A program made the position numbers and the translations under genes. 64,000 nucleotides of DNA, from contig NZ_JAHXBG010000030.1 of NCBI RefSeq assembly GCF_020103725.1, positions 36,337-100,336 on the forward strand, in the 5' to 3' direction. The notes beneath the pieces are model-generated. The model was given only the letters and a program-made list of their open reading frames with translations. It made no database searches and was not told where the DNA came from. Of this stretch, positions 3,605 to 60,600 are shown one piece after another (the stretch's first letter is position 1; the number at the start of each line of letters is the position of its first letter). This DNA is from Hyalangium gracile (GTDB taxonomy: Bacteria; Myxococcota; Myxococcia; Myxococcales; Myxococcaceae).

Positions 3605-5581
<1,977 letters not shown>

Positions 5582-5620
5582 CACGGTTGAGACGGCTCCC
5601 TGAAGCTCCTCGTAGAGTGA

Positions 5621-6448
5621 GTGCTGGGGCTTCAACGCCTGAAGGGAGGGTCTATCAACTTGCGTGGAGCCAGGATCCGCCCTGCCTTGCAGCTCATGGC
5701 TCCCGTGCTCTTGCTTTCCCTGTCATGCACTGGCGCCAGGCTCTACTACGTGCACAGTGAGGTGCCCAAGCTGGAGGGAAAGTGGGCTGTGGGCCCTGGA
5801 CCCTGGCCAGCAGTGCCTGCGGTGATCTCGGACGGGTCCTCTGTCCCCGATGCCTTGGTGCTGTCGGCTCTCAAGGCGTTGATGGCGCTACCTGGGGCAG
5901 CGGATTCCTGCGATGCGTGGGGGCAGCCACGTCCCGACGCGGCCGAGTACTGCATTGCAACCTATCGGACACCGCGGGACTGGCGTGTGACGTGGCCCAT
6001 CCGGAATCTGGTGGATGCGGCGAGCGCGTGCAGACCTCCTTTCGGCGGTGTCGAAGATGCGGACTTTGGACGAGACCTGCCCGTGTTTGGCTATGCCCAC
6101 AACCACACCTGCGGACTCTTCGCGAGCAGCACGGACCTGATGAGGTTTCCTGCCGCGAGAGCTCCGACAGGGGCATGGGTGGTCGTAGGGTATGCGACGG
6201 CTCCCAGCGGCGGGTTGGCCCGTGATTCACAAGGGGAGCTGATTCCAGCATGGCATTGGCTCGCCACGGGACATGCGACCGAGCCTCGGTTCTACAAGTG
6301 GAACCCAGCGGGCGAAGTCTTCAAATGGAGCGAGAACGGGGGACGTTGGGAGTTTCAGGCGATCTGCAAACCTGAGTCGTCCACTCTCCTCGAGGCTGAT
6401 CGCGCCCTCGCGCCAAACTGCACTCCTGCGTTGACAGACTGGTACTGA
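5621..6448 (+). CDS. hypothetical lipoprotein or secreted protein
   Basis: Signal peptide with an LSLSC lipobox-like motif; Trp-rich; no recognisable domain; slightly lower GC than the flanks. Confidence 0.45.
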   Translation: MLGLQRLKGGSINLRGARIRPALQLMAPVLLLSLSCTGARLYYVHSEVPKLEGKWAVGPGPWPAVPAVISDGSSVPDALVLSALKALMALPGAADSCDAWGQPRPDAAEYCIATYRTPRDWRVTWPIRNLVDAASACRPPFGGVEDADFGRDLPVFGYAHNHTCGLFASSTDLMRFPAARAPTGAWVVVGYATAPSGGLARDSQGELIPAWHWLATGHATEPRFYKWNPAGEVFKWSENGGRWEFQAICKPESSTLLEADRALAPNCTPALTDWY

Positions 6449-6461
6449 GTCAGGACTTCTT

Positions 6462-6998
6462 GTGGGTGGTTCTATGTTGAGACCTCATCTTTTGATTCTG
6501 CTCGGTTCGCTCTTGAGGGATGGCGGAGTGGGCGCGCCGCAACCCAGCTCCACGGGACCGGACGCAGGGATGATGGCGGCTCCAGCTCGCCCGTCAGAGG
6601 CTGATGCAGGGGTTGGGGCAGACCCGGCGCTTGCCTCGGAACGAGATGGTGGGGCTGTTGTGCGCAAGCCTGTCATCGCGGGAGGCATTCGTTGGCCAAC
6701 CGAAGTGCGGACTCTGGCCACGTTGGACGGGCCCGCTGTCCTTGCTGCTCATGCCGCGATGCAGCAGGTGCTGACACGTCTCGCGAAGAATTACTCGGGG
6801 GAGTGTGAGACCTCTGCCAAGGCCATGGAGGTGATCGTCGGCGAGGGTGACGGAATGTATATCGTCCGTATCAATCAACGCGTCGACAAGTGCGGATGGG
6901 TGGCTCCCCCCGGATTCAGCACCGAGACCGACTGGTTCGAGCTGTATGCCGTCTCTCCAGAAGGGAAAGTCCTCGCGCGCTATCCCTATCACCCCTGA
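6462..6998 (+). CDS. hypothetical secreted protein
   Basis: Hydrophobic N-terminal signal (LLILLGSLL); no recognisable domain. Confidence 0.4.
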   Translation: MGGSMLRPHLLILLGSLLRDGGVGAPQPSSTGPDAGMMAAPARPSEADAGVGADPALASERDGGAVVRKPVIAGGIRWPTEVRTLATLDGPAVLAAHAAMQQVLTRLAKNYSGECETSAKAMEVIVGEGDGMYIVRINQRVDKCGWVAPPGFSTETDWFELYAVSPEGKVLARYPYHP

Positions 6999-7014
6999 AA
7001 CGATTTGAAGGCGC

Positions 7015-8376
7015 TCACTTCGACTTGAGCTGCGCGGCAGGGGGGCTCGCGGGCTGGATGGGCTGCGGCTCTCCTCCCAGCCTCCAGGCCAGGAGCCCAC
7101 CTCCGGCAAGAAGCAGCCCCACGCAGGCAAGGGCCCACGCCAGCCCGGTCTTCTGGTGCGGCCTGAAGACCGCTCGGGCGGGCAGGGTCTCCGCCTCGGA
7201 GTCGACGGACTGGGTCGGTCTCGGAGCGGGCCTCGGCTTGGGCGCCGTGCTGACCCCGAGCTTCCCGGCGGACTCCACCTTCGTGATGGCCAGCCCCGGC
7301 CGAGGCGGCGGAGACATGCGCCGCGGTATCGGAACGAGCACCTCCCGGGGCGCCGGCGGAGGCGTGACCCTGGGCGCCGGAGGAAGCGTCTCCGTCTCGC
7401 TGGGCGGCGGAGGCGGTGTGGCGCGCGGCGGCTCGCTCGGTGGGGCCGGCGGCTCCTCCACCTTCACCTCGAGCATCTTCGACACGAAGTTCGCGGTCCG
7501 GTGCACGCCCACCTTCTTCCCGGTGGACAGCAGGTAGTCCTCCAGATCCGACAGGAACGCGCGGCAGTCCGCGTAGCGCTGATCCCGATCCTTGGCGAGC
7601 GCACGATCCAGGATCCGCGCCACCGCCTGGGGCAGATCCGGCCGCCGCTGCAACACCGGCACGGGCGGCTCGAAGAGGATGGCCTGCGCCATGCTGGCTT
7701 CCGTCGTCGCGTTGAACGGCTTGCGGCCGGTGAGCAGCTCGTAGAACACGACGCCCAGCGAGTACACGTCCACCCGCAGGTCCAGCGGCATGGCCCGGAT
7801 CTGCTCGGGCGCCATGTACGAGAGCTTGCCCTTGATGACCCCGGTCAGCGTCCGGTGGCTCTGGTTGGCCGCCTTGGCGATGCCGAAGTCCACGATCTTC
7901 AGCCCGCCCTCGCGCGACAGCAGGATGTTGTCCAGGCTCACGTCCCGGTGGATGAGCTCCAGCGGCTGCCCCGTCTCCGGCTCCCGGAGCGCATGGGCGA
8001 AGGCCAGCCCCTCGCACGCCATCGCGATCAGCTTCGCGCACAGCACCGGCGACAGCGCCATCTTCAGCGAGTTCACCCGCTTCATGAGCGCGCGCAGGTT
8101 CAGCCCGTCGATGTACTCCATCGCCAGGTAGTACGTGCCGTCGGCCTGGCCGAAGTCGAAGATCTGGACGATGTGCGGGTGATTGAGGCGAGCCGCCAGC
8201 CGGGCCTCGGTGAAGAACATCTCCACGAAGCCCCGGTCCTCCGCCAGGTGCGGCAGGACGCGCTTGACGACCACCTCTTTCTCGAACCCCATGGGGCCCG
8301 CGACCTTGGCCAGGTAGACCTCGGCCATACCCCCGGTGGCGAGCTTGCGGACGAGCTGGTACTTGCCGACTTGCAT
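7015..8376 (-). CDS. Ser/Thr protein kinase, membrane-anchored
   Basis: Start at MQVGKYQLV. Hanks motifs [21 protein letters not shown] and APE; Pro-rich linker; C-terminal TM helix. Confidence 0.85.
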
Positions 8377-26343: not shown

Positions 26344-27888
26344 TTGACCCCCAGTATCGCCGAACCAACGCGGCGTGTCATGATGATCCCCGCAGCCGTG
26401 ATGCGGAGGATCTCGATGAGAAGGATGCTCGTCCCGGGGCTGTTCGACGACTATGCCGTCGCGCCCGGGACCTTCGATGAGCTGTTCGAGGCCAGTGGTA
26501 CCGCCCGCTCCCACTTCCTCCGCATGTTCGCCATGCTGGCGGGGCGCAGCGCCGAGGAGTTCGCCCGCATCCAGGCGCTGGCCGAGCGGGCCCTGCTGAA
26601 CCAGGGCGTCACCTTCTCGGTGTACTCGGACTCGCGGGGCACCGAGAAGATCTTCCCCTTCTGCCTCATCCCCCGCATCGTCTCGAGCGTGGACTGGATG
26701 CGTCTGGAGCGCGGGCTGGAGCAGCGCACCCGGGCGCTGGGCCTCTTCCTGGATGACGTCTACGGCCCGCAGCGGATGCTCGCGGAGCGGCCCGAGCTGC
26801 GAGACATCGTCCTGGGCACGAAGCTGTACCTGCCCCAGCTGCGCCACGTGCGGCCCCCAGGCGGCGTGCGCATCCACGTGGCGGGCATCGATCTCATCCG
26901 GGACGAGCGCGGCACCTTCCGGGTGCTCGAGGACAACCTGCGCACCCCGTCGGGTGTCTCCTACGTGATGGAGAACCGCATCATCTCCAAGCGGGTGATG
27001 CCGGAGATCTTCGAGCAGGCGCGGATCCGCCAGGTGGACCACTACCCCGCGCGGCTGGCGGAGACGCTGCGCGCCGTCTCGCCCGAGGATCCCGAGCACT
27101 CCACGCTGGTGGTGCTCACGCCCGGGCCCTACAACTCCGCCTACTTCGAGCACTCGTTCCTGGCGCGCACCATGGGCGTGGAGCTGGTGCAGCCGGCCGA
27201 TCTCTTCGTGGAGCGCGATCAGGTGTTCGTGCGCACCACCCGGGGGCCGCGCCGCGTGCACGTCATCTACCGGCGCATCGATGACGCCTTCCTGGATCCC
27301 GAGGCCTTCCGCCCGGACAGCCTGCTGGGCGTGCGCGGGCTGATGCGGGCGTACGCCGCGGGCAACGTGGCGCTGGCCAACGCGCCGGGCAACGGGGTGG
27401 CGGACGACAAGGCCGTGTACGCCTTCGTGCCGGAGATGATCCGCTTCTACCTCTCCGAGGAGCCGCTGCTGGAGCAGGTGCCCACCTACGTCTGCGCGCG
27501 CAGGCAGGAGCGCGACTACGTGGTGGATCACCTGGAGCAACTGGTGGTGAAGGCGGTGGACGAGGCCGGTGGCTACGGGATGCTGATGGGCCCGCAGTCC
27601 ACGCCCGAGGCGCGCGAGGAGTTCCGCGCCCGCATCCTCGCCGAGCCGCGCAAGTACGTGGCCCAGCCGCGTGTGGAGCTGTCCACCTGTCCCACGTGGG
27701 ACGCGGGGAAGGGCAGGGTGGCGCCGCGCCGGGTGGATCTGCGGCCCTACATCCTCACCGGGCCGCAGGGCCCGTGGGTGCTCCCCGGCGGGCTGAGCCG
27801 GGTGGCGCTGCGCGAGGGCTCATACGTCGTGAACTCCAGCCAGGGGGGTGGCTCGAAGGACACCTGGGTGCAGCGGGAGGTCGCATGA
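26344..27888 (+). CDS. circularly permuted type-2 ATP-grasp protein (COG2308/DUF404 family)
   Basis: Family-typical sequence (VTFSVYSD...FPFCLIPRIV; NAPGNGVADDKAVYAFVPEMIRFYL). Confidence 0.8.
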   Translation: MTPSIAEPTRRVMMIPAAVMRRISMRRMLVPGLFDDYAVAPGTFDELFEASGTARSHFLRMFAMLAGRSAEEFARIQALAERALLNQGVTFSVYSDSRGTEKIFPFCLIPRIVSSVDWMRLERGLEQRTRALGLFLDDVYGPQRMLAERPELRDIVLGTKLYLPQLRHVRPPGGVRIHVAGIDLIRDERGTFRVLEDNLRTPSGVSYVMENRIISKRVMPEIFEQARIRQVDHYPARLAETLRAVSPEDPEHSTLVVLTPGPYNSAYFEHSFLARTMGVELVQPADLFVERDQVFVRTTRGPRRVHVIYRRIDDAFLDPEAFRPDSLLGVRGLMRAYAAGNVALANAPGNGVADDKAVYAFVPEMIRFYLSEEPLLEQVPTYVCARRQERDYVVDHLEQLVVKAVDEAGGYGMLMGPQSTPEAREEFRARILAEPRKYVAQPRVELSTCPTWDAGKGRVAPRRVDLRPYILTGPQGPWVLPGGLSRVALREGSYVVNSSQGGGSKDTWVQREVA

Positions 27889-28868
27889 TCGCGCGAGTGG
27901 CGGAGCTTTGCTTCTGGCTCGGGCGCTACCTGGAGCGCGCCGAGAGCACGGCCCGGGTGCTCCAGGTGACGGGGACGCTGGCGCTGGATGCGGGGCTGGC
28001 CCCCGAGCAGTGCTGGCGGCCGGTGCTGGCCGTCTTCGGCGAGCGGCTGCGCTTCGCCTCGCGAGGCGCCAGCGCGGCCGAGGACGACGGCGAGCAGGTC
28101 CAGCGCTTCATGGTCTGGGATGAGGACAACCCCTCCAGCATCCAGGCCTCGGTGGCCGCGGCCCGGGAGAACGCGCGCGCCATCCGCGAGGTGGTGAGCA
28201 TCGAGTGCTGGGAGGTCATCAACGAGCTGTTCCTGTGGATGCGCGGCGAGGAGGCGAAGGAGGAGTACGCCCACCACCGCTACGGCTTCTACCGGCACGT
28301 CCGCCGCTCGGTGCAGCTGTGCCTGGGGCTGTTGCGCAGCACCATGCTGCACGACACGCCCCTGGACTTCATCTGGACGGGCGTGCTGCTGGAGCGGGCG
28401 GGGCAGACGGCGCGCGTGCTGGATGTGCACCACCACGCCTTCTCGCAGCTTCCGAGCGGCCACCAGGTGGTGGAGACGTCGCTCTGGCTCTCGCTGCTGC
28501 GGGCGTGCTCGGGCTTCGAGCCCTTCATGAAGCGCCACCAGGGCCGCGTCACGGGCAACGCGGTGGCGGCGTTCCTGCTCTTCGAGCAGGAGTTCCCGCG
28601 CTCGCTGCGCTACTGCCTGAAGTCGGCCCACAAGTACCTGATCGAGTTCCACCCGCCTGGCACGCAGGGGCTGCCCGGCGCCGAGACGGTGGCCCTGAGC
28701 ACGCGGCTGCTGGAGCGGCTCCAGCCGACGGCGCTCTCGGCTCCCGGAGCCACCGTGCACGGGCTGCTCACACAGGTGGTCGAGGACACCGGCGCGCTCT
28801 GTGACATTCTGGCCGCTGAGTTCTTCGGGGCGGCAAGAGCGCTGGGCTCACAGGCGATGGCCCAGTAG
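27885..28868 (+). CDS. alpha-E domain protein (COG2307/DUF403 family)
   Basis: MIARVAELCFWLGRYLERAE N-terminus typical of the alpha-E family; ATGA overlap with the upstream ATP-grasp gene. Confidence 0.75.
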   Translation: MIARVAELCFWLGRYLERAESTARVLQVTGTLALDAGLAPEQCWRPVLAVFGERLRFASRGASAAEDDGEQVQRFMVWDEDNPSSIQASVAAARENARAIREVVSIECWEVINELFLWMRGEEAKEEYAHHRYGFYRHVRRSVQLCLGLLRSTMLHDTPLDFIWTGVLLERAGQTARVLDVHHHAFSQLPSGHQVVETSLWLSLLRACSGFEPFMKRHQGRVTGNAVAAFLLFEQEFPRSLRYCLKSAHKYLIEFHPPGTQGLPGAETVALSTRLLERLQPTALSAPGATVHGLLTQVVEDTGALCDILAAEFFGAARALGSQAMAQ

Positions 28869-28880
28869 AGTCCCGCGGCC

Positions 28881-30641
28881 ATGCCCAACCTCCTCGCCAT
28901 GTCCTTCGAGGGAGAGCTCGCGCCCAGCCTGGACCTGCGGTGCCTGGCTCCCGGCAACAAGCCTCCGGACGGCTGGGGCGTGGGCTACTACCCGGGCAGC
29001 GAGCCCGCCGCGGCGGTGCTCAAGGAGCCTCGGCCGCCTCCGGGGGGCAGCATCCGCAGCGAGCTGGTGAAGGCCTGGGAGCACCTGGAGTCCTCCCTGC
29101 TCCTGCTGCACATCCGCACGGCGAGCTGGGGCGCCATCACCGACGCCAACACCCAGCCGTTCTGCCGCAGCTACGCGGGGCGGGACTGGCTGTTCGGACA
29201 CAGCGGCACCCTGCGTCAGGCCGTGCAGCTGCCCGTGGACCCGGCCTTCGAGCCGGTGGGCTCCAGCGACTCGGAGAGCGTCTTCTGCGCGCTGCTGAGC
29301 TGGATCCAGGCCTCTGGCTGGAAGCGGCTGGGAGACGTGGATCTGGAGCGCCTGCGGGCCTGGCTCGAGGAGATGAACGGCCTGGGGCCGCTCACCGTGG
29401 TCTTCACGGACGGACACGATCTCTGCATCTACGCGGACCGGGAGCAGTCCACGAAGGCGTGGATGTGGCGGGTGGCGCCGCCCTACGAGCGGCTGGTCAT
29501 CGGCGATGACGACGTCGAGGTGGACCTGACGAAGCGCGGGGCCAAGAGCCGCAAGGGCGTCATCTTCAGCACCCAGCCCATCGAGTCCCGCACGGCGGAG
29601 GTGAAGGCGAACTGGACGCCCATCGTCCCCGGAGGGCTGGTGATGGTGCGGCAGGGCGCCATCCGCGCCGAGGTGCTGCCGCCTGGCGTGAAGCGCGAGC
29701 CGGGTAAGGACACCAGCACCGCCGCCGAGCTGGCCGCGCGCGGCACCCTGAGGCGGCCTCCCGTCGCGCCGGTGCGAGTCATGGACGTGCGGCACCGCAC
29801 GGTCTACCGCTACGAGCGGCCCGTGGAGCGCAGCGCCCACGTGCTTCGGCTGACGCCGGTGCATGACCGGCTGCAGAGCCTGCGCTCGCACGAGCTGCGG
29901 ATGTCGCCGGGGGTGCTGCAGAGCGAGTACGAGGACGTCTTCGGCAACCATGTGCGCAAGGCGCTCATCGAGACGCCCTACACGGAGCTGGTCATCGAGG
30001 CGAACTCGCGGGTGGAGCTGCGGGACACGGATCCGCTCGGCCACCGCGCGCCCCACATCCGCACGACGTTCCCGGTGCTGTGGATGCCGTCGCAGCAGGT
30101 GATGCTCCAGCCGTACCTCCAGCCGCCGCCGCTGCCGGACAGCGAGCTGGAGGAGCTGCTCGAGTACGCGATGAGCTTCGCGCGCCGCAACGACTTCGAT
30201 CTGCTGGACACGCTGCTGGACCTCAACTTCAGCATCTACAAGGAGTACCAGTACATCCAGGGGGTGACGCACCTGAACACGTCGGCGTTCGAGGTGTACT
30301 CGGCGCGGCGCGGCGTGTGCCAGGACTTCACCAACCTGTTCCTGTGCCTGGCGCGGCTGCTGGGGCTGCCGGCGCGCTACACCTGCGGCTACATCTATAC
30401 GGGCCCCAAGCACGCCAACACGCAGCAGGCGGAGGCCTCGCACGCGTGGGCGCAGGTGTACCTGCCCGAGCGAGGCTGGAGGGGCTTCGATCCCACCAAC
30501 GGCGTGCTCACGCAGACGAACCACGTGCGCGTGGCCACGGGGCGGACGCACCGGGACGCGACGCCCACCTCGGGCACCATCTACGTGGGCGGCAGCATCG
30601 AGCGGCTCGAGGTCACGGTCGTCTGCGAGCCCGTCGAGTAG
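28881..30641 (+). CDS. fusion protein: class-II glutamine amidotransferase-like (YafJ-like) domain, bacterial transglutaminase N-terminal domain, and transglutaminase-like core
   Basis: N-terminus MPNLLAMS...DGWGVGYY...HIRTASWG...NTQPF resembles YafJ/GATase_6 but has Pro where the Ntn nucleophile Cys should be. The middle region is VRHRTVYRYERP. The C-terminal transglutaminase core has Cys/His/Asp (RRGVCQDF...SHAWAQVY...FDPTNG). Confidence 0.8.
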   Translation: MPNLLAMSFEGELAPSLDLRCLAPGNKPPDGWGVGYYPGSEPAAAVLKEPRPPPGGSIRSELVKAWEHLESSLLLLHIRTASWGAITDANTQPFCRSYAGRDWLFGHSGTLRQAVQLPVDPAFEPVGSSDSESVFCALLSWIQASGWKRLGDVDLERLRAWLEEMNGLGPLTVVFTDGHDLCIYADREQSTKAWMWRVAPPYERLVIGDDDVEVDLTKRGAKSRKGVIFSTQPIESRTAEVKANWTPIVPGGLVMVRQGAIRAEVLPPGVKREPGKDTSTAAELAARGTLRRPPVAPVRVMDVRHRTVYRYERPVERSAHVLRLTPVHDRLQSLRSHELRMSPGVLQSEYEDVFGNHVRKALIETPYTELVIEANSRVELRDTDPLGHRAPHIRTTFPVLWMPSQQVMLQPYLQPPPLPDSELEELLEYAMSFARRNDFDLLDTLLDLNFSIYKEYQYIQGVTHLNTSAFEVYSARRGVCQDFTNLFLCLARLLGLPARYTCGYIYTGPKHANTQQAEASHAWAQVYLPERGWRGFDPTNGVLTQTNHVRVATGRTHRDATPTSGTIYVGGSIERLEVTVVCEPVE

Positions 30642-30902
30642 CCGTCGCGCGAGGTGCTCCAGGATGGAGCAACCTGGCTCAGTCTGGAGCAGGCGAGAGA
30701 TCCAAACTGGGCGGGAATTCCTCCGTTTTCGAGCGGCTCCCGTCTGAAACGGCGTGGGCACGCGGCTGGCATTGAGGGGCGGTGAACTCTCACCGAGCAG
30801 GTATCCCTGTGCCCCCCCTCGAACAACAGCAGCGAAGCCATCCAGCGCATCTCCCTGAAGAACCGCGAGTACGCTTACATCGAGGACGCGAACCGCGGCG
30901 TC

Positions 30903-33098
30903 GTGCTGGTGGAGATCGGCCCCAAGGTCCTGACGCTGGAGGCCCACCTCACGCTCGTGACCAAGAGCCGGATGATCGAGCTGGGCACGGGCAGCTGGTG
31001 CGTCGTGCGCAACCCGGTGGTGCGCGAGGGTGGCAAGGTGTCGCTCGACGACTTCGGCCAGGCCCGCATCGCCGTGGGCGATCGCGAGGTCCGCGTCGGT
31101 CCCCAGGTGTTCCCGCTCTACCCGGGCGAGGAGCTGGAGGGAGAGATCACCCCCGAGTACGTGCTCGGCGTCTACGACGCGCTGCGCCTGCGGGCCCTCA
31201 CGGCCTTCAGCGATGAGCGGGCTCCGGGTGGGCCGCGCACGCGCGAGGCCGGTGACGAGTGGCTGGTCCGAGGGCCCGGACGCTACGTGCCCAGCGCGGC
31301 GGTGATCGTCGTCTCCGCGGAGAAGGCGCGCGTCCTCAAGGAGACGGAGTACTGCGTCGTGCTGAACCCGGTGGACCGGACCACGGGGAAGATCCAGGAG
31401 GGCCGCCGCAAGGTCATCTCCGGCCCGGACGTCTTCTTCCTGGAGCCGGGCGAGGCGCTGGAGGGAGACGTCCGCCGCAAGCACGTGCTGTCCGAGATGC
31501 AGGGGCTCAAGCTCCAGGCGCTCGATGACTTCTCCGAGACGGAGGAGGGCGGGGAGCTTCGGACGCGCAAGGCGGGTGACACCTGGATCGTCCGGGGCCC
31601 GCGGACCTACGTGCCCAACGAGCGGGTGCTGATCCACAAGGAGATCGTCGCGCTCTCGCTGGGGCAGGGCGAGGGCCTGTACGTGAGGGATCTGCGCTCC
31701 GGCAAGGTGTCGCTGGTCCAGGGCCCGTGCCAGTTCATGCCCGAGGCCCACCAGGAGCTGCACGAGAAGCGGCTCTCTGCCGACGCCGAGGCGCTGCTGG
31801 GGCTGGCTCCGGCGCAGCAGGGCGCGCACCTGGCCGCCGTGGATGGGAAGGACGCCAAGGCGCCACGCCCGGCAGCCGCGTCCGCGGAGCGGATCGACCG
31901 CACGCGAGCCATCGTCCTGCGCATCGAGGACAACACGGCGGTGCTGATCAACGACTTCGAGACCAACCACGCCCGGGTGGAGTTCGGCCCGGCGAAGGTG
32001 ATGCTGCGCCCGTACGAGGACGTGACGGTGCTGGATCTGTCCGGCGGGACGCCCAAGCGCCCCAGGCAGCTCAAGGTGCTCATGCTGCGGCTGGGGCCGG
32101 ACTTCGCCACGGACTTGTTCGAGGTGGCGACGAGGGATCACGCCCGGCTGCGCATCAAGCTCTCGTACAAGTGGCAGTTCGACGTGGAGGGGGACTCGGA
32201 GAAGGACAAGGCCATCTTCCGGGTGAACGACTTCATCGGGTACGTGTGCGAGAACCTCGCGTCGCGCATCCGCCAGGTGGCGGCGGAGAACGACTTCGAG
32301 ACGTTCCACAAGAACGCGAGCGTGCTCATCCGCCGGGCCATCTTCGGCGTGGATGAGGCCGGCAAGGCGCGCAAGGATCGGCTGTTCTCCGAGAACCAGC
32401 TGCGCATCATCGACATCGACATCAAGGACATCGCTCCGGTCGATGACAAGACGGCGCTCAAGCTGCGCGAGGCCATCGACACGAACATCCAGATCCAGCT
32501 GGATGCCTCGAAGCAGGAGGCGCAGGCGTCGGCGGAGCTCAAGCGCATCCGGAGCGAGGAGGAGAAGCAGCTGGCGGACATCTCCAGCCACCGGAAGTCG
32601 GAGGCCGAGCGGCAGTCGCTCATCGAGCTGCAGAACAAGAACCACCAGCTGGCCACGCTGAGCCACGCCAAGGTGGAGGCGGAGGCGCAGCTCGAGAAGG
32701 CTCGGGTGGAGAGCGAGGAGGCGCTGGCCCGCGCGGAGGCAGAGGCCCGGGCGTCCCGCATCCGCACCGAGGCGGAGCTGGAGCGCGAGCGGCTGATGAG
32801 CGAGGTGGCGCTGGAGCGGCAGAAGCGGATGAACGATCTCGAGGTGGACCGGCAGGCGCGGCTCGCCGCGGTGGAGGCCGATCAGTTCCGCAAGCGAGTG
32901 GAGGCGCTCGGGGGCGGAGAGAACTTCGTCAAGGCGGTGGCGGCCCAGGCGCAGGCGGCGGTCGTCGGCGGGCTGGACAAGGTGGTGTTCCTGCCCACTG
33001 GCTCCAACCTCAACCTCTTCGACTCCATGCAGGGGCTGCTGGGGCCTGGGAGCCGCAACGCCCTCGCGGCGGACAAGGGCGCCGGCGGTACGAACTGA
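30903..33098 (+). CDS. major vault protein (MVP) homolog
   Basis: Repeated MVP-repeat modules (FPLYPGEELEGEITP; REAGDEWLVRGPGRYVP; RKAGDTWIVRGPRTYVP); shoulder-domain match (LGPDFATDLFEVATRDHARLRIKLSYKWQFDV compared with eukaryotic LGPDFFTD...DHARLQLQLAYNWHF); coiled-coil cap-helix region. The GTG at 30903 is the first canonical in-frame start, but conserved N-terminal residues are encoded upstream of it, back to the stop codon at 30783. Confidence 0.8.
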   Translation: MLVEIGPKVLTLEAHLTLVTKSRMIELGTGSWCVVRNPVVREGGKVSLDDFGQARIAVGDREVRVGPQVFPLYPGEELEGEITPEYVLGVYDALRLRALTAFSDERAPGGPRTREAGDEWLVRGPGRYVPSAAVIVVSAEKARVLKETEYCVVLNPVDRTTGKIQEGRRKVISGPDVFFLEPGEALEGDVRRKHVLSEMQGLKLQALDDFSETEEGGELRTRKAGDTWIVRGPRTYVPNERVLIHKEIVALSLGQGEGLYVRDLRSGKVSLVQGPCQFMPEAHQELHEKRLSADAEALLGLAPAQQGAHLAAVDGKDAKAPRPAAASAERIDRTRAIVLRIEDNTAVLINDFETNHARVEFGPAKVMLRPYEDVTVLDLSGGTPKRPRQLKVLMLRLGPDFATDLFEVATRDHARLRIKLSYKWQFDVEGDSEKDKAIFRVNDFIGYVCENLASRIRQVAAENDFETFHKNASVLIRRAIFGVDEAGKARKDRLFSENQLRIIDIDIKDIAPVDDKTALKLREAIDTNIQIQLDASKQEAQASAELKRIRSEEEKQLADISSHRKSEAERQSLIELQNKNHQLATLSHAKVEAEAQLEKARVESEEALARAEAEARASRIRTEAELERERLMSEVALERQKRMNDLEVDRQARLAAVEADQFRKRVEALGGGENFVKAVAAQAQAAVVGGLDKVVFLPTGSNLNLFDSMQGLLGPGSRNALAADKGAGGTN

Positions 33099-33106
33099 GG
33101 CCAGGG

Positions 33107-33194
33107 GCGGGGCGAAGCCATCCTCATTCCATTGGACAGAAGCGCCGCCGGCGACTTGATGGGGCGTGCGCATTCGTTCGTAGGATGGCTTCGC
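33107..33194. repeat. 14-bp perfect inverted repeat (GGCGAAGCCATCCT ... AGGATGGCTTCGCC) with about 60 nt between the arms
   Basis: Read directly from the sequence. The right arm abuts the ATG at 33196. Confidence 0.4.
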
Positions 33195-33195
33195 C

Positions 33196-33603
33196 ATGGC
33201 CATCGCAGAAGTCCACGTACGCATCGGGAAGCTGCTCGCCGCCATCGACGAGCTGCTGGAGACGTCCTCCACCGACATCCGGCTGATCGAGCGGGTGGTC
33301 GATCTGGCTCGCTGGTCGAAGCTCTACATCGACCTGGAGCTGGCCTATAAGCCCTACCGGGACGTCCGGGATGCCGAGTGGACGACGCGGAAGTTCACCA
33401 CGGAGGAGAGTGCGCGAAAGCTCCTCGTGGAGTTCCGCGACACGCTTCGCGACGTGGAGGCGTCGACGACCGGCCACGTCGAGCAGCGCAACCTGCGAGC
33501 GCGAGTCGAGGGCGTGCTGAACGTCACGCAGGAGTGGTGGAAGCAGTCGGCCGAGAAGAAGCAGGGGAGCGCTACCGGGGCAGGCGGGACTCGACCTGCT
33601 TGA
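33196..33603 (+). CDS. hypothetical protein
   Basis: 135 aa ORF; no recognisable domain; its start is embedded in the right arm of an inverted repeat. Confidence 0.4.
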   Translation: MAIAEVHVRIGKLLAAIDELLETSSTDIRLIERVVDLARWSKLYIDLELAYKPYRDVRDAEWTTRKFTTEESARKLLVEFRDTLRDVEASTTGHVEQRNLRARVEGVLNVTQEWWKQSAEKKQGSATGAGGTRPA

Positions 33604-43541: not shown

Positions 43542-43871
43542 TCAGGCCAGAATCTCTTCCGGGGTGTAGTAGGCGCGCGGCGCGGAGCCCGTGCTCACCC
43601 CGAAATACCGGAACATCCGCTCGTGGTGCCCCGCCAGCCCGCGGAACTGCACCTTCTGGTGCGCCGGCAGGCTCTGGGTCAGCACCCCCACCGCCGTGTC
43701 CTTGAACTCGCGCAGGTGGGTGAAGTCCAGCATCACCTCGCGAGGGCCCAGAGCCTCCAGCGAGTGACGCAGCTGCGCCGCCGTGCGCCAGTCCAGCGTC
43801 CCCTCGAGCCGGAGGGTGATGCGCCCCGCAAGCTCTTCCTGGTGGATCTGCAGCCCCGCCATCATTGTCAT
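43542..43871 (-). CDS. STAS domain protein (anti-sigma-factor antagonist-like)
   Basis: About 110 aa, start at MTMMAGLQ, SpoIIAA-like fold signature (LRLEGTLDWRTAAQL...VMLDFTHL). Confidence 0.65.
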   Translation of the reverse strand: MTMMAGLQIHQEELAGRITLRLEGTLDWRTAAQLRHSLEALGPREVMLDFTHLREFKDTAVGVLTQSLPAHQKVQFRGLAGHHERMFRYFGVSTGSAPRAYYTPEEILA

Positions 43872-44090
43872 CTCCCCTTGTCGCCGAATCGGTGAGCGTG
43901 CCGTCCCACGGACGGACACGGTGCTTGCTGCATTTTCCGGGCCGACCAGGACCCATCGAACCCTTGGAAATTCCAAGGAAGAATCCCGTGCGGCCGGAAC
44001 AATTCGCGCAAAGCAGGAGATTTTGCAGCCCCCCCCGGAAAGATTTGCGCGAACTGTCCGCAATCCATCGGAAGGGGTGTTGCGCAGCGG

Positions 44091-54947: not shown

Positions 54948-55109
54948 CGACAAACTGGATGCGGTGCGCACGGACCCTTCAGATTCCAGGGTAAGAAGGA
55001 TCAACTGCGCCGGATCATCGGCCGGTAGAACACTCCTCGCTTGACGCCACTCAGCCCATCCTGGATTGCAAAGCCCCAGGCAGGTCGAATGCTTTTCGTG
55101 CGCTCCGTC

Positions 55110-58100
55110 CTATGCATGAGGAGATGGCCACGGCGCCACCTGCTGGATGCGCTCGGTGACTTCCTGCCGAACACGAGCGTAGTCCTCGATGAGCTTTGCC
55201 ACCGTCGGGCTTTGCCGCGTCTCATTATCCTTCTTGAGCTTCTCTTCCCTGATTGCGAGCCAGTTTTGGGCCTCCCGAGCCTGCTCCAACAAGGCCTTGG
55301 CCGGGTCCTCCACGCTCGTGAGCGAGGGCTGTCCTCCGGCAACGCCTGATTCGGCGGCCTTCCGCAGAGCGAGCCCCGCCTGGAGCGTGCACTGAACCAA
55401 ATCCCCCAAGTACGAGGGCTGGACGTTGCCGTCGAACATGCGGATGGCCTCCCACATTCGCTCGATACCTACCATCGGCTCGTTCTTCCGCGCTAGGATC
55501 TTGCCCCACTCGAACCGGGACGAGGGCCGCCGTTCCGCCGCTTTCTTGAAGTAATCGGCTGCTTGGTCGTGGTCCGTTGGCTCTCGAGAGGCGAAGTAGA
55601 AGCCGTACTCCTCGTTCACCAGCGGGTCATCCGGGTTGATTTGGGAGGCACGTTTGAGCGCGCGCTCGGCGTACTCCTCCCAGCGTGGCCAGTTCGCTTG
55701 GCGGTACACTCGCGCCAAGCAGGTGTGCGCTGCGATGAGGTCGGGCAGGTAGGTGAGCGCGCGTTGCATGAGCGCCTCGCTATCTTTTCGGACCACCCGC
55801 TGGAGCGCTTCCCGGCTTCGCGAGTCCAGCTTTTCCGGGGAAAGGCTCGGCAACTCGTTCTCCAACTTGGAACGTGCCTCTTGCAACTGCTCGGAAGAGA
55901 ACTCCATCAACTCGGCCTGATCCAGACGTCGCCGGCCCATGACATAGAGTGCGTAGCCGCGCACTGGAGCGAACTCCTTCTCGGTGACGCCCTTCGGAGG
56001 AGTGCTCTTCTCGAAGAAGGCCTCCAACTCCCGGATCTGTGCATCCAAATCGGCGGATTCCTCGGCGGTGAGTTGGTGCCGCGTGGACTTCCCCGTTCGC
56101 ATCTTCCCGCAGACCTCCAAGAGGCAGGCTTTTGCGTCCAGCGCGAGCCTTCCCTCGTGCGCTGCTAGCTCCTTGAAGACCTTGTGTGCGCCCCTGAGCG
56201 CGGCGAGCCATCGTCCCTGAGCTTGGAGCAGTGCGGAGTGATACTTCTTCTCGTCCGAGAGCTGCCCTTCGGGCAGCTCTTCCAGCAGTGCGCGGGCGAC
56301 CTCGGGCTCGCGCAGCTTCCGCATGACGATCGCCAGCTTCAGCTTGGCGTGCGCCATCCGCGGATCATGGGCCAGGGCCGCCTGCAAAAGGTCTCGGGCC
56401 TTCTTGAGAGCTTGCGCCCGGTCATCTTGCGGCAGGACACCATCCATCACGAGTAGCGCCTGATAGTACGCGGCGAAGGCATCGGGACTCTTCGTCATCT
56501 GCTTGTCTGCCGGGAACTTTTGGTGCGCGAGCTTGAGTGCAAGCTGCCGGAAGGCGTCGTTGGTGGCGGCAGCAGTGATCCCTGTGGCTATCGCGGTCCA
56601 GCGGCCGATTTCCTTCCCGGTCGCGTTGTCGAACTTCCGGATGAACACCCGGATGTTCCCGCCTTCCACGGAGACGACCCCCGTCAGTTGATAGCGCCGC
56701 TGCTTAAAAGCAAGCTGCGCGAGGATGTTCCAAAGCGCTTTGGCTGGGACCGACAGCGGCCCGACAGTTACCTTCTGCTCATCGCCCAGGTACTGCGCGA
56801 AGTCCTTGAGGCTCTCATAAGCGGTGGAGTCCCACTGGGGCAGCGCCTCGCCGAGGTTCGCCTCGTGTCCGGTTACCGGCACCGTGGGCTGGAGGGCAAC
56901 TTCCTGGAAGCAGACTTTGAGCCTCGCCATCTGCAGCTCACTCGCACCGGGCCTCGCCTCGTCGCTCAGGTCGTAGATCACCAGCTCAGAGTCTTCCCGC
57001 CGTTTCAGGAAGAGGCGCTGGATCCACGCCTTGCACTGCAGCAGCAGGGATACCAGCAGAAGAAGGACGATGACCCCGAGCAACACGAGCACTGGGGTCT
57101 TAAAGGGAGCCACAACCTCCTTGAGCCAGTGCCAGAGCGATAGGATGAGATGATCCTGCTCCTCGATCATTGCCCTGCCGCTTGCAATCTCCTCGATGAG
57201 GGTTGGTACGCCCTGCGCGAGAGGCTCCATCTCGGCATAGAGCTTCTTGGCCTCCTCAAAATTTCGGGAGTCGACGGCAGCTTTCACCTTCGCGCGGAGT
57301 GCGTTGTAGTCCGTGCTCCATTTCTCCAGGTGGTAGACGTAGGCGATCAGCTCTGGAAAGTCCTTGAGCTTGCTGGAACCCCTCAGTGTGGTCAGCATCT
57401 CTGCGATGCTTTGATGCGCGCCGTAGGCAAGCTTGATCAGGTTCTCCTGCCGCCGGATCTCAGCGAGCGCATCCTGGTACCGGCCTAGGATGAGCCGGGC
57501 GGGAGCGTTGCCGGGGGTGGGCATGGTGGCCGTCAGGGTCTTCTGGAGCAACTCGGACGCTCCGTCCACCGGCTTGCCGTCCTTACCAGTATCCGTCCAC
57601 ATTCGGCCGGCGGCTGCGGCCGCGCGGACCTCCGAGAACCCTTTCAACCAAGCATCAGTCATGCCAGCTGCATAGGTCGCACGAGCCGTGTTGTAGGCTG
57701 CGGCCGCGAATTCGATCTCCTCCTTTAGCTTGGGCGTGAGGGCCGTCTGGGCGAGCGGTTGCACTTGGGCTTGCTCGTACAGCAGCATTGCTTGCGCGAG
57801 GTCTCCTCGGCTCAGGGCCTCGCTGGCTGCCTTCCGGAGGGCTTCGAGGTCCGCTTGCCAACGCTGGAGCCGGTAAACGTGGGCGAGGAGTTCCGGCTGG
57901 TTCTCCAGCTTCTTGGAAGCCTTGAGATGGGCCAAGAGTTCCGCAGTTCCAGTTCCATCGGTTGTTGTATAGATGTAGCGGAAGCGCATCTCGCCGCTTC
58001 GCAGTTCCTCAAGCGCCTCCTTATATTGGAGCAGCTCATCGGTTTGTGGCTGGGCACTGCCCACGATATCCAGAGCCCCCCCAGGGACGAACAGCCGGCC

Positions 58101-58208
58101 CTCTGCGGCTGCCACTTTCGCCTGCTGTAGGGGCGTGGCAGACCCCTGGGGCTGAGCGCTGATCGCTAGGAGAGTTAGCACACGGACGAATAGGAGGGAC
58201 GATGCCAT
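55110..58208 (-). CDS. large membrane-anchored TPR-repeat protein
   Basis: Signal peptide (MASSLLFVRVLTLLAISAQ), internal TM helix (VLVLLGVIVLLLLVSLLL), many TPR-like helical repeats. GC lower than the genome backbone. Confidence 0.65.
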   Translation of the reverse strand: MASSLLFVRVLTLLAISAQPQGSATPLQQAKVAAAEGRLFVPGGALDIVGSAQPQTDELLQYKEALEELRSGEMRFRYIYTTTDGTGTAELLAHLKASKKLENQPELLAHVYRLQRWQADLEALRKAASEALSRGDLAQAMLLYEQAQVQPLAQTALTPKLKEEIEFAAAAYNTARATYAAGMTDAWLKGFSEVRAAAAAGRMWTDTGKDGKPVDGASELLQKTLTATMPTPGNAPARLILGRYQDALAEIRRQENLIKLAYGAHQSIAEMLTTLRGSSKLKDFPELIAYVYHLEKWSTDYNALRAKVKAAVDSRNFEEAKKLYAEMEPLAQGVPTLIEEIASGRAMIEEQDHLILSLWHWLKEVVAPFKTPVLVLLGVIVLLLLVSLLLQCKAWIQRLFLKRREDSELVIYDLSDEARPGASELQMARLKVCFQEVALQPTVPVTGHEANLGEALPQWDSTAYESLKDFAQYLGDEQKVTVGPLSVPAKALWNILAQLAFKQRRYQLTGVVSVEGGNIRVFIRKFDNATGKEIGRWTAIATGITAAATNDAFRQLALKLAHQKFPADKQMTKSPDAFAAYYQALLVMDGVLPQDDRAQALKKARDLLQAALAHDPRMAHAKLKLAIVMRKLREPEVARALLEELPEGQLSDEKKYHSALLQAQGRWLAALRGAHKVFKELAAHEGRLALDAKACLLEVCGKMRTGKSTRHQLTAEESADLDAQIRELEAFFEKSTPPKGVTEKEFAPVRGYALYVMGRRRLDQAELMEFSSEQLQEARSKLENELPSLSPEKLDSRSREALQRVVRKDSEALMQRALTYLPDLIAAHTCLARVYRQANWPRWEEYAERALKRASQINPDDPLVNEEYGFYFASREPTDHDQAADYFKKAAERRPSSRFEWGKILARKNEPMVGIERMWEAIRMFDGNVQPSYLGDLVQCTLQAGLALRKAAESGVAGGQPSLTSVEDPAKALLEQAREAQNWLAIREEKLKKDNETRQSPTVAKLIEDYARVRQEVTERIQQVAPWPSPHA

Positions 58209-58301
58209 GCTCTGCTCCACCTTCCGGAAGTGCGGCGCATCATGGGCCCTGGTGCCCTTCCCCGAAAGAGGAGACGAGCAGCTAGGGGCCAGACGATTTC
58301 C

Positions 58302-60251
58302 TCATCCAGCTCCGCCGCCGCTCTTGCTGATAGTGCGAAGGATGGCGTAGCGCCTGGAAACCCATTGCCCTGGTTTCGTGAAGTCAAGCTGCCTGCGTTC
58401 ATCGAGAGTGACCAGCTTCTTGTAGAAGCTAAGATGCGGCGGCTGGCGCAGATAGTCACCGAGCTTTTCGGCGGCCTCATCCTGCGAATTGTAGAACGCC
58501 ACCGTCTTTGTCTTCACCGGCTCCGTGCTCACCAGGATCTCACCGCGCCCTTCATTGAAGTACCGGTTCAGGATGTAGGTATCCACGATGGGCACCTCGT
58601 CGATGATCTGCAGGGACCCGAGCGCCGAGTTCAAGACCACGCAGCACTCAATCGAGACCGCCGCCGGATCCACGTTGCCACCTACCTTGTTCACCTCGTC
58701 GGCGAGCCAGGCTGGGTTTTCGCGGACATACTTCACCTTGCCCTGAAGCTGCTTGACGGCGTCGCGGATGCGCTCCTCATGCAGGAACCATTCATGCGAC
58801 GTGGCCGGCCGCCGGAAGCATTTGATCTCACCCACCAGGATCTTGTTGCCGATCCACACCACTAGGTCGAGGTCGCCCACGGAGGAATCGGGGGGCTGGA
58901 GTTTGTGGGGAACAACCCCGGAGAAGTTCCAGTGCGGCTTGCCCTTTATCTTCTTCGCGAGCGAGGCCCGGACATGGTCTTCGTAGGAGGTGCCGCGTTT
59001 TCCCAAATCCCATCCTCCTTCGCTCATCCAGTACTCGAGCGAACGCCGCAGATTGGGGGATTGGAGCGCGGCAAGCACGATGACCCGGTGCTCGGGACCG
59101 ACACTCACAAGGGGCCTGAACCAAAGGCTGTCACGGACTGTCCGCCACGTGAGCGCATCGATGATAGTGCGGCACCGCTCGTCCGCGAGACCGGTGGCCT
59201 TGGCGAGTGCGGCAACCAGCGCTCGTACTGGGATGAGTGGGGCAAGCTCCTCGAACTGCGCTGGGTGGGTGAGGGGGATTCGGGGCATGCGAGAGGCAAT
59301 GTCCATAGTCAGGGGGACGAGGGCCGCCCAAGCCTCCAGCATCTCGAGGAGCGTCACCCCACCGAGCGACTCCAAGGGCTCTTTCGCGTGTGGGTCGAGA
59401 TCGGGCTCGCTCGCGACCATCCGCCAGAGGTGGATCTGAACCGCCATGTCTTCGGTGGTCTCTCCGACGTGAACCTTTCCGCTCAACTTCCTGAAGCGGA
59501 TGGCCTTTCGGCGCAGGATGGCGTCAAGCACGCGGGGTAACTTGCGAAGTCCCTCGATGCCGTGCTGCATCATTTCCTGTACCAGCATGGTCTCCCGATC
59601 CAAGCCGAGGGCACGCGCACTGGCACGCTCAAGGTCACGAGGAACCAGCTGGGTAGGCTGATCCTCCGGCATCTCCACCGCCAGATCGTGATGAAGACAC
59701 TCCATCCAGTCCTCCTCAAGCCCGTGATAGGCGATCGTGAAATTGAGCCGCAGGAACATCTGGCGCAGCTGTCCCAGCCCGTCGAGCTCGTTAGCGAAGG
59801 TGCGCGGAGTGCTCGCCGTCAAGGCCGCCAGCTCGAAGCGGAGCCCGTCCACGGTTCCCTCCACTGTAGCCTCGGCGGGGGCCACGTTCACATTCCCGGC
59901 GAGAGAAATCCTGCTCTCCACTATATCCCGCTGCGTGATCGTGCCACGAGTCGCGGCAAGGTTTCGTTGGACGGTCTCCGCCACCGTCAGGCATTCACGG
60001 TTGACCAGTCCAACCGCGCGCCGGATGATTTGATCGGGACGGCCTGGGGGCACGGGGGTTGCCTCGAAATACGCGCGTAGCCCCTCAAATTGGGAGTCGA
60101 ACCAGAGTGCTGCCGCGAACAGACGCAGATCTTCCAGACTGGGGGATGGGATGGCACGAAGCGCGGAGAGCCACTGCTCTGGCTCGAAGCCCTTCTGTGA
60201 CGGTCCCTTAAGGTCTCCCTCAAGGACACGGGTGCGAAGCGTCTTTTGCAT
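58302..60251 (-). CDS. hypothetical protein with C-terminal PD-(D/E)xK / NERD-like nuclease motif
   Basis: 650 aa from MQKTLRTRV. The C-terminus has GDLDLVVWIGNKILVGEIKC (D...E-x-K arrangement). GC lower than the backbone. Confidence 0.5.
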   Translation of the reverse strand: MQKTLRTRVLEGDLKGPSQKGFEPEQWLSALRAIPSPSLEDLRLFAAALWFDSQFEGLRAYFEATPVPPGRPDQIIRRAVGLVNRECLTVAETVQRNLAATRGTITQRDIVESRISLAGNVNVAPAEATVEGTVDGLRFELAALTASTPRTFANELDGLGQLRQMFLRLNFTIAYHGLEEDWMECLHHDLAVEMPEDQPTQLVPRDLERASARALGLDRETMLVQEMMQHGIEGLRKLPRVLDAILRRKAIRFRKLSGKVHVGETTEDMAVQIHLWRMVASEPDLDPHAKEPLESLGGVTLLEMLEAWAALVPLTMDIASRMPRIPLTHPAQFEELAPLIPVRALVAALAKATGLADERCRTIIDALTWRTVRDSLWFRPLVSVGPEHRVIVLAALQSPNLRRSLEYWMSEGGWDLGKRGTSYEDHVRASLAKKIKGKPHWNFSGVVPHKLQPPDSSVGDLDLVVWIGNKILVGEIKCFRRPATSHEWFLHEERIRDAVKQLQGKVKYVRENPAWLADEVNKVGGNVDPAAVSIECCVVLNSALGSLQIIDEVPIVDTYILNRYFNEGRGEILVSTEPVKTKTVAFYNSQDEAAEKLGDYLRQPPHLSFYKKLVTLDERRQLDFTKPGQWVSRRYAILRTISKSGGGAG

Positions 60252-60600
60252 GTGAGTCGGGCAGCATCCACCTGGAGCCCTCGGACGTCGAGCACTTCTA
60301 GCAAGGCTGCTCGCTCGCCCTGTTAGGGGCGTGTCGGGGTATTGCCTGAGATTGGCTCCTACATACGATCCATAGCGGTATGCAAAGATCGCACCACTCA
60401 TCCTATAGTGGGTTGTTGGGATTCCCTGACAGACTCCTAGACGAAAGTGGCGCTGGTGGACAGGTGGGAACTATGGACAACTCGGAAGGGTGCCGTGGAA
60501 AGCCACTGAATTCGATGGGGTGGGTACGGACATGCGATCTTCTCCACCAAATCGCTCGGTGATTCCCGGCCGGGTGGCAGTAAGCGAGACGAGGGGGACC

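Follow-up and report, generated by a model that had tools for sequence, protein, structure and literature searches.

A one-base homopolymer indel as the probable cause of a displaced start codon in a Hyalangium gracile major vault protein homologue

In bacteria such as Neisseria, Campylobacter and Haemophilus, contingency genes are subject to phase variation through poly-G/C tracts, and the length of a homopolymer located in the 5' end of an ORF then sets the reading frame. To our knowledge, poly-G/C phase variation has no precedent in myxobacteria. Ribosomes may also slip on sequences of this kind: in Escherichia coli reporters, CCC-C at codon 2 leads to about 1% of +1 frameshifting by tRNA-Pro, as an error process and not a designed one (PMC4519876). 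Initiation at a near-cognate codon is a further documented event, a CUG start reaching 1-2% of the level of AUG in E. coli (bioRxiv 10.1101/063800). Finally, and much more ordinarily, a G/C run close to a start codon can gain a single base, in which case the frame is lost within a few codons, the remainder of the ORF stays intact and conserved, and the annotated protein is short at its N-terminus.

Homologues of the eukaryotic major vault protein (MVP) have been described in several bacterial groups: Myxococcales, Cytophagales and Oscillatoriales (bioRxiv 10.1101/872010; Daly et al. 2013, PMC3762200). Among the proteins discussed in bioRxiv 10.1101/872010, according to which the bacterial homologues are unstudied in vivo, is the H. 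minutum orthologue A0A085WQF1. We analyzed a stretch of 64,000 nucleotides, hereafter the window, taken from a draft contig of H. gracile and containing one such gene. As in other bacterial MVP homologues, the encoded protein combines Vault repeats, an MVP_shoulder domain and a C-terminal coiled coil. All Pfam matches are above the curated cut-offs (MVP_shoulder, 153.9 bits for a cut-off of 25 bits; Vault_2, 117.3; Vault, 105.9; Vault_3, 78.5; Vault_4, 32.4), and a comparison of the whole protein with the solved rat MVP (PDB 2qzv) yields an E-value of 1.9e-138. This similarity is full-length and includes the N-terminal first repeat: query residues 17-188 correspond to residues 17-184 of the 2qzv chain, with EAIQRI opposite EAIIRI. 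Unlike the other bacterial homologues, from which it differs in this sole respect, the window copy has a frameshift at its start (Table 1). A 1476-aa minus-strand ORF (28848-33278) overlapping the gene was rejected as a high-GC shadow ORF, as the GC3 phase and a GC1 higher than GC2 fit plus-strand genes.

Table 1. Features around the 5' end of the MVP gene, in window coordinates
Feature	Position	Strand	Remarks
Conserved sigma54-type -24/-12 promoter-like element (GGCACG-N4-TGGCA)	30757..30771	+	Identified by conservation; promoter function predicted
Upstream GTG, with GAGGGG at 30774-30779	30782..30784	+	Candidate start of the preliminary description; probably not a start
Shine-Dalgarno-like AGG	30799..30801	+	Within conserved GAGCAGGT; 7 nt upstream of GTG 30809
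CTG in the MVP frame	30807..30809	+	Possible weak near-cognate start; would give M-C-P-P-S-N-N-S-S...
Family-conserved ancestral MVP start GTG	30809..30811	+	Here +1 out of frame with the MVP body
C7 run	30812..30818	+	Pro-Pro codons CCC CCC plus one extra, frameshifting C, from orthologue comparison
Conserved N-terminal coding segment (SNNSSEAIQRISLKNREYAYIEDANRGV)	30819..30902	+	Outside the annotated 731-aa model; nearly all orthologue differences synonymous; aligns with rat MVP residues 5-27
Annotated MVP ORF	30903..33098	+	731 aa; exact match to RefSeq WP_224248935.1 (Hyalangium gracile)

Upstream of the annotated ORF, the MVP frame is closed by a TGA at 30783-30785. Its codons from 30786 to 30902 include no ATG, GTG or TTG, and the only near-cognates among them are CTG 30807, ATC 30840, 30849 and 30879, and CTG 30855, which leaves GTG 30903 as the earliest canonical start. 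A preliminary description of this DNA had pointed out this gap, as well as a GTG at 30782 that follows a GAGGGG and opens another frame, and a C7 run from which the removal of one base joins the two frames; we confirm each of these observations. The frame opened by GTG 30782 is a 144-aa ORF ending at 31216, and fuses to MVP upon deletion of one C to give a protein of 771 aa. What had been overlooked is GTG 30809, which shares the frame of GTG 30782 and immediately precedes the C run. Starting from this second GTG, the same deletion produces 762 aa, and this product carries the N-terminus of the orthologues.

We consider, with a probability of roughly 0.87, that a one-base homopolymer indel displaces the true start GTG 30809 from the MVP frame, and that neither programmed recoding nor a conserved phase-variation tract is at work. 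Three explanations had been envisaged in the preliminary description. The first, a homopolymer indel arising from either an error or a slippage mutation, is the one we retain; the second, a programmed or phase-variable site, is not, as the tract is unconserved and stimulatory elements are unseen; the third, non-canonical initiation, is kept only as a possible leaky rescue from CTG 30807.

Comparison of orthologous loci identifies GTG 30809 as the true MVP start, used across the family. Of the 28 loci, 27 have a homologous GTG, ATG or TTG in frame, at -27 or -24 relative to the AIQRI anchor, and 14 of these have no other in-frame start after the upstream stop. The other out-of-frame start, found in a MAG (L022), lies at a different sequence. 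An AGG precedes the start by 5-8 nt in 27/28 loci, and the orthologous proteins open with M-P-P-S-N-N-S-S-E-A-I-Q-R-I at this position, an N-terminus of the form M/V/L-PPSNNSSEAIQRI being shared by about 35 close orthologues. The A. primigenium protein P0037 is N-terminally short.

Some 40 nt upstream of GTG 30809 is a sequence with the sigma54 spacing TGGCACG-N4-TTGCW (GGGCACGCGGCTGGCA at 30756-30771, 2 mismatches). Since a match to the sigma54 consensus alone is at chance level within the window, the evidence for this element lies in its conservation: 16 aligned loci all share the GG-N10-GC core, and the motif GGCAYGNGRCTSGCA has a single, identically placed occurrence in 23 of 24 orthologous genome loci, compared with none in 120 unrelated loci. 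A scan of positions 30500-31000 found no sigma70 promoter and no intrinsic terminator. If the element is functional, transcription would start at about 30780-30785. MVP homologues of Myxococcaceae and Archangiaceae thus appear, from sequence conservation, to carry a common sigma54-type promoter element.

This arrangement bears on the proposal, made in the preliminary description, that GTG 30782 is a well-placed start served by GAGGGG. The C run would then lie 10 codons into the gene and, once the frameshift is resolved, the native product would be a 771-aa protein beginning with MNSHRAGIPVPPSNNSS. GTG 30782 is indeed in the same frame as GTG 30809 with a purine-rich stretch upstream, and some gene calls show a similar upstream extension (P0002, P0007 and the 771-aa H. 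minutum model P0131). However, a homologous in-frame start, at -54, exists in only 4 of the 28 loci, and the 14 loci with a sole in-frame start have it at -27 or -24. L001 and L003, the closest relatives, have the equivalent codon 26 nt from the conserved start, hence out of frame, and it is missing altogether in L005, L002 and L004. The spacing to GAGGGG is only 2 nt, and the additional residues NSHRAGIPV have no counterpart in orthologue N-termini. Moreover, about 12 nt separate GTG 30782 from the upstream -12 GC conserved in the sigma54-type element, which places this codon close to the predicted +1 and would leave GAGGGG outside the corresponding transcript. Initiation at GTG 30782 is therefore very unlikely, the family using GTG 30809.

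The length of the C tract was compared across orthologues, a check that the preliminary description had recommended. Among 27 orthologues, the run following the conserved start contains no C in one locus, two in 17 loci, five in two and six in seven; C7 is found in none, and the tract of the window is longer than that of any relative. Exactly C6 is found in the seven loci with CCC CCC codons, among them H. versicolor L001, L003, L005 and L146, the last of which is identical to the window over the tract stretch except for T30808 and one extra C. In most orthologues other, synonymous codons for Pro break up the homopolymer; sequences seen in its place include CCT CCT and CCG TCC. No other G/C run of the gene reaches 6, so that the C7 run is its most slippage-prone site. 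We also scanned metagenome DNA for the C6 and C7 alleles: an exact 26-nt pattern had 0 matches, while a shorter gapped pattern matched at least 120 stretches, and the MVP N-terminal motif is encoded in none of the matches listed.

The sequence of events that we propose is simple. In relatives, the start is followed by Pro-Pro, encoded by CCC CCC in the most similar loci, and the window run would have been extended from this state by one C. Translation initiated at GTG 30809 would then leave the MVP frame after codon 3 and end at 31216 after 135 off-frame residues, while an annotation pipeline, finding no canonical start in the MVP frame before GTG 30903, would fall back on that codon. The 731-aa RefSeq protein WP_224248935.1 is such a fallback call at the next start. 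Nothing substantive distinguishes this locus from a homopolymer indel near a start: a G/C run has one base more than in any relative, reading leaves the frame past codon 3, no other damage affects the conserved ORF, and the annotated protein is N-terminally short (731 versus about 762 aa). The event is of an ordinary kind, its only unusual point being that the shift occurs too close to the start to be flagged by frameshift detection based on protein alignment.

That the stretch upstream of 30903 is truly coding, and not open by chance, is seen from the MVP-frame GC3, which is 0.95-0.98 from about 30811 on, and from the alignment of EAIQRI... with rat MVP from residue 5. Over the 66 nt that encode AIQRISLKNREYAYIEDANRGV, 2-9 bases separate the window from each of 27 orthologues, with zero amino-acid changes in 26 of the 27, a pattern that indicates purifying selection on the segment. 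The preliminary description had envisaged the alternative that orthologues would start at the equivalent of 30903 and be devoid of the segment; this is clearly contradicted by the orthologue comparison. These results make it extremely improbable that the annotation is correct, with a 731-aa MVP translated from GTG 30903 and the conserved upstream stretch (SNNSSEAIQRISLK...) left untranslated. GTG 30903 is the first canonical in-frame start and the RefSeq call, but no SD-like motif is present upstream (GCGAACCGCGGCGTC), the GC3 coding signal begins at about 30811, and the product would lose 23 orthologue-invariant residues that match rat MVP 5-27 in the first repeat domain. The RefSeq model is 31 residues short at the N-terminus; 23 of these hardly vary in the family and belong to the first vault repeat. 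For expression or modelling of the H. gracile MVP, the sequence to use is the one of 762 aa, starting at GTG 30809 with one C removed.

Selection has also been maintained over the gene as a whole. Lineage-specific codon changes in the window gene amount to 42 synonymous and 4 non-synonymous, as compared to 64/7, 23/4 and 21/5 in intact orthologues. Taken with the conservation of the upstream segment, this ratio implies that any inactivation is recent, absent or bypassed, and the ORF, intact and well conserved, bears no positive sign of pseudogenisation.

Concerning the origin of the extra C, we assign roughly even chances to a slipped-strand mutation that arose very recently in the culture used for sequencing and to a base-calling or assembly error. 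MVP is the sole case, out of 48 coding segments in the window, where the coding signal starts well before the first start codon, and of the 27 G/C runs of 6 or more that were scanned, the 26 outside MVP are free of GC3 phase changes. The lack of a similar defect elsewhere in the window argues against a generally error-prone assembly. Hyalangium assemblies have been described in a paper as highly fragmented. The repaired proteins of 762 and 771 aa, in their M- and V-start forms, had no exact match in a collection of 15 billion proteins, and a contig search for another assembly encoding the 731-aa protein returned no record.

Should the C7 allele be genuine, we infer that it would behave as a strong hypomorph and not as a null, since expression would probably be leaky. 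Slippage of tRNA-Pro by +1 at GUG-CCC-CCC-C would restore precisely the MPPSNNSS... terminus, with a product starting (M)PPSNNSSEAIQR, and weak initiation at CTG 30807 would give MCPPSNNSS...; both leak mechanisms are extrapolated from E. coli. The resemblance to the E. coli reporters is close, as CCC-C is present here at codons 2 and 3 and a +1 slip at either codon would restore the exact orthologue protein. In contrast to a designed site, however, the E. coli case is an error process of about 1%, and the orthologues have no need for a slip. It is very improbable that functional MVP of native sequence is still made from a genuine C7 gene by efficient +1 tRNA-Pro slippage or by on/off switching of tract length; either would tie the expression of a bacterial vault-protein homologue to recoding or contingency at codons 2-3.

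A more specific version of this idea would make C7 a functional switch that sets MVP output, either through phase variation (C6 on, C7 off) or through a programmed +1 frameshift at GUG-CCC-CCC-C. The tract occupies the classic position of phase-variable homopolymers, right after the start codon, CCC-C beside a start is the most +1-shift-prone context reported in E. coli (about 1%, PMC4519876), and selection on the gene body is unrelaxed. Conservation speaks against such a switch: merely CC follows the start in 17/27 orthologues and more than six Cs in none, the window is the only locus out of frame at the tract, and no orthologue requires a frameshift there (27/28 loci are in frame, and the out-of-frame start of L022 lies elsewhere in sequence). 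As in the contingency genes of Neisseria, Campylobacter and Haemophilus, a poly-C in the 5' end of the ORF sets the frame by its length, but the tract is short (6 or 7) and the homopolymer is not maintained across orthologues. Seven bases are at the lower edge of the tracts known to switch at useful rates, which also counts against the switch. Stimulatory elements of the kind associated with prfB- or antizyme-type sites were looked for and not found: the 0-frame A-site codon is CUC, which is neither rare nor a stop, the AGG lies 10 nt upstream of the C run with no prfB-like closely spaced SD, and the RNA fold of 30782-30900 (z = 0.02) predicts no stimulatory structure. A regulatory role for the tract is thus very doubtful.

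Equally doubtful is full compensation of a real C7 by initiation at CTG 30807, yielding a full-length 763-aa protein (MCPPSNNSS...). This codon lies 5 nt after the conserved AGG and would be served by the same SD-like element; it depends on T30808, which is absent from the otherwise stretch-matching L146, and purifying selection on the gene continues. Set against this, CUG starts in E. coli reach only 1-2% of the AUG level (bioRxiv 10.1101/063800), the overlapping GTG 2 nt downstream would compete, and no orthologue has a non-canonical start or a Cys at position 2. T30808 itself is unremarkable given the spacer of 5-8 nt among orthologues.

We thus return to the homopolymer indel; with a genuine C7, the H. 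gracile type culture may naturally be hypomorphic for MVP. Broken MVP orthologues in other genomes bear on the possibility of a real mutation. A 5-bp tandem duplication disrupts the gene in one strain of C. carmarthensis, C. llansteffanensis has a large internal deletion in it, and the copy of an Archangium MAG is fragmented. This recurrence of broken homologues in sequenced genomes suggests that the gene is dispensable under some conditions.

The encoded protein is, judged by its sequence, beyond doubt a major vault protein (MVP), since the Pfam domains MVP_shoulder, Vault, Vault_2, Vault_3 and Vault_4 score above their cut-offs and rat MVP structures are matched with E = 1.9e-138; EAIQRI of the window aligns with rat EAIIRI (native residues 5-10). 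MVP homologues of Myxococcales, including the H. minutum orthologue, have been described previously (bioRxiv 10.1101/872010; PMC3762200). The 731-aa ORF is identical to RefSeq WP_224248935.1 (hypothetical protein, H. gracile, 139,861-bp contig), so the annotation pipeline took the first canonical in-frame start, GTG 30903. No SD-like motif precedes this codon, and its product would miss 23 residues that belong to the first vault repeat and are invariant. The preliminary description rightly held that the conserved N-terminus lacks a canonical start in frame: codons 30786-30902 of the MVP frame include no ATG, GTG or TTG. This upstream stretch is coding, because from about 30811 onward the MVP frame has a GC3 of 0.95-0.98 and because base changes leave AIQRISLKNREYAYIEDANRGV unaltered: the 66 nt encoding it differ by 2-9 bases from each of 27 orthologous loci, with the amino acids unchanged in 26. 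An antisense ORF of 1476 aa was rejected as a high-GC shadow ORF, as GC3 phase and GC1 > GC2 suit the plus-strand genes. The gap between the three-gene set directly upstream and MVP is about 900 bp longer in H. versicolor (L001) than in the window.

Features of the window and of orthologous loci
Feature	Position	Remark
Upstream gene set	26344-30641 (+)	CP_ATPgrasp_2 (circularly permuted ATP-grasp), Alpha-E domain protein, GATase_4/transglutaminase fusion
Antisense ORF	28848-33278 (-)	ATG-initiated; opposite transglutaminase and MVP genes
Conserved sigma54-type -24/-12 element	30757-30771	GGCACG-N4-TGGCA; GG-N10-GC geometry of sigma54 promoters
H. versicolor counterpart of element	L001:2941-2955	Form conserved across loci: GGCACG-N4-TnGCA
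GTG 30782	30782	Preceded by GAGGGG; opens neighbouring frame
Stop codon TGA	30783-30785	Closes MVP frame
GTG 30809	30809-30811	AGG 7 nt upstream
C7 run	30812-30818	Only G/C run of at least 6 in the MVP gene
Annotated MVP ORF	30903-33098 (+)	Opens at GTG 30903
Longest homopolymer (C8)	44029-44036	Intergenic; upstream of small minus-strand gene starting near 43865
Weak-signal regions	5548-7453; 55100-60500	GC3 coding signal weak or absent relative to rest of window
Second C. carmarthensis strain	L149:1790-1794	5-bp tandem duplication GGCGA relative to CA043D; otherwise 99.75% identity
C. llansteffanensis	L023:3001-3849	Residues ~176-624 lost in frame (~450 residues)
Archangium MAG	L024:641-1487	MVP fragments spread over three frames
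MAG	L022:~160-190	RBS and ATG shifted out of frame by one base

Deleting one C from the run joins the frame of GTG 30782 to the MVP frame, a claim of the preliminary description that we reproduced computationally. That description overlooked a second GTG, at 30809, which shares this frame and directly adjoins the run (GTG CCC CCC C TCG AAC AAC); with six Cs, a 762-aa protein with the N-terminus of the orthologues is computed from it. The proposed one-C frameshift in a homopolymer is retained; the MVP start is GTG 30809, not 30782 as had been proposed there. Some 35 close orthologue proteins (85-93% identical) open with M/V/L-PPSNNSSEAIQRI, and 27 of 28 orthologous DNA loci (the genome collection gave 24, exact-protein look-ups 4) carry GTG, ATG or TTG at the homologous position in the MVP frame; in 14 loci no other in-frame start stands between the upstream stop and the conserved segment. 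An AGG lies 5-8 nt before this start, within conserved GAGCAGGT, in 27 of the 28. GTG 30782 has an in-frame equivalent in only 4 of the 28; its equivalent in H. versicolor and L003 lies 26 nt from the conserved start and is therefore out of frame, and L002, L004 and L005 have no GTG there.

About 12 nt separate GTG 30782 from the conserved sigma54-type element upstream of it. The sigma54 consensus alone occurs at chance frequency within the window; the element's columns do not vary among the aligned upstream regions, and 23 of the 24 genome loci, but 0 of 120 unrelated loci, have the motif GGCAYGNGRCTSGCA, each time as a single copy in the same place. This conservation suggests that bacterial MVP homologues in this clade are, as a rule, transcribed in an RpoN-dependent (enhancer-dependent) manner. 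If the element is a promoter, the transcript would start near 30782, leaving GAGGGG outside it. Neither a sigma70-like promoter nor an intrinsic terminator was found near the MVP start.

Comparison of tract length, as the preliminary description had proposed, revealed C runs of 0, 2, 5 or 6 after the start and 7 in no orthologue. All seven loci using CCC CCC have a run of exactly 6; one of these, L146, differs from the window along GAGCAGGTATCCC[T]GTGCCCCCC[C]TCGAAC... at the two bracketed bases only. The extra C does not mark a conserved site of recoding or contingency, because synonymous proline codons interrupt the run in most orthologues, no orthologue requires a frameshift at it, the following 0-frame codon is an ordinary CUC, no closely spaced SD is present at the run, and shuffled sequence folds just as well as the 5' region (z = 0.02). 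Among the explanations offered earlier, an ordinary homopolymer indel, here with an annotation consequence, holds, and there is no support for the more exotic readings.

Neither reads nor a second assembly were found, so an assembly error and a recent mutation by strand slippage are about equally likely. As the only long G/C run in the gene, the C7 tract is where slippage is likeliest. A general homopolymer problem is not seen in the assembly: the window's 26 other G/C runs of at least 6 show no change of GC3 phase, and in only one of 48 coding segments, MVP, does the coding signal begin well ahead of the first start (by 114 nt). Real disruption of MVP is common among relatives (see table), and the A. 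primigenium orthologue P0037 (703 aa) is N-terminally short too. The gene is no old pseudogene: the codon changes found in the window lineage alone (42 synonymous, 4 non-synonymous) resemble the ratios of intact orthologues (64/7, 23/4 and 21/5).

If C7 is real, translation from GTG 30809 would yield an off-frame peptide of 135 residues that ends at 31216, and two leaks could still give MVP at full length. With a +1 slip of tRNA-Pro at GUG-CCC-CCC-C, the product would again be MPPSNNSS...; in E. coli, CCC-C at codon 2, called the ORF position most prone to shifting, shifts at about 1% (PMC4519876). Initiation at CTG 30807, which belongs to the MVP frame and shares its AGG with GTG 30809, would produce MCPPSNNSS...; CUG starts in E. 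coli reach 1-2% of AUG efficiency (bioRxiv 10.1101/063800).

Elsewhere in the window, the two weak-signal regions are perhaps non-coding, or else foreign DNA that differs in composition.
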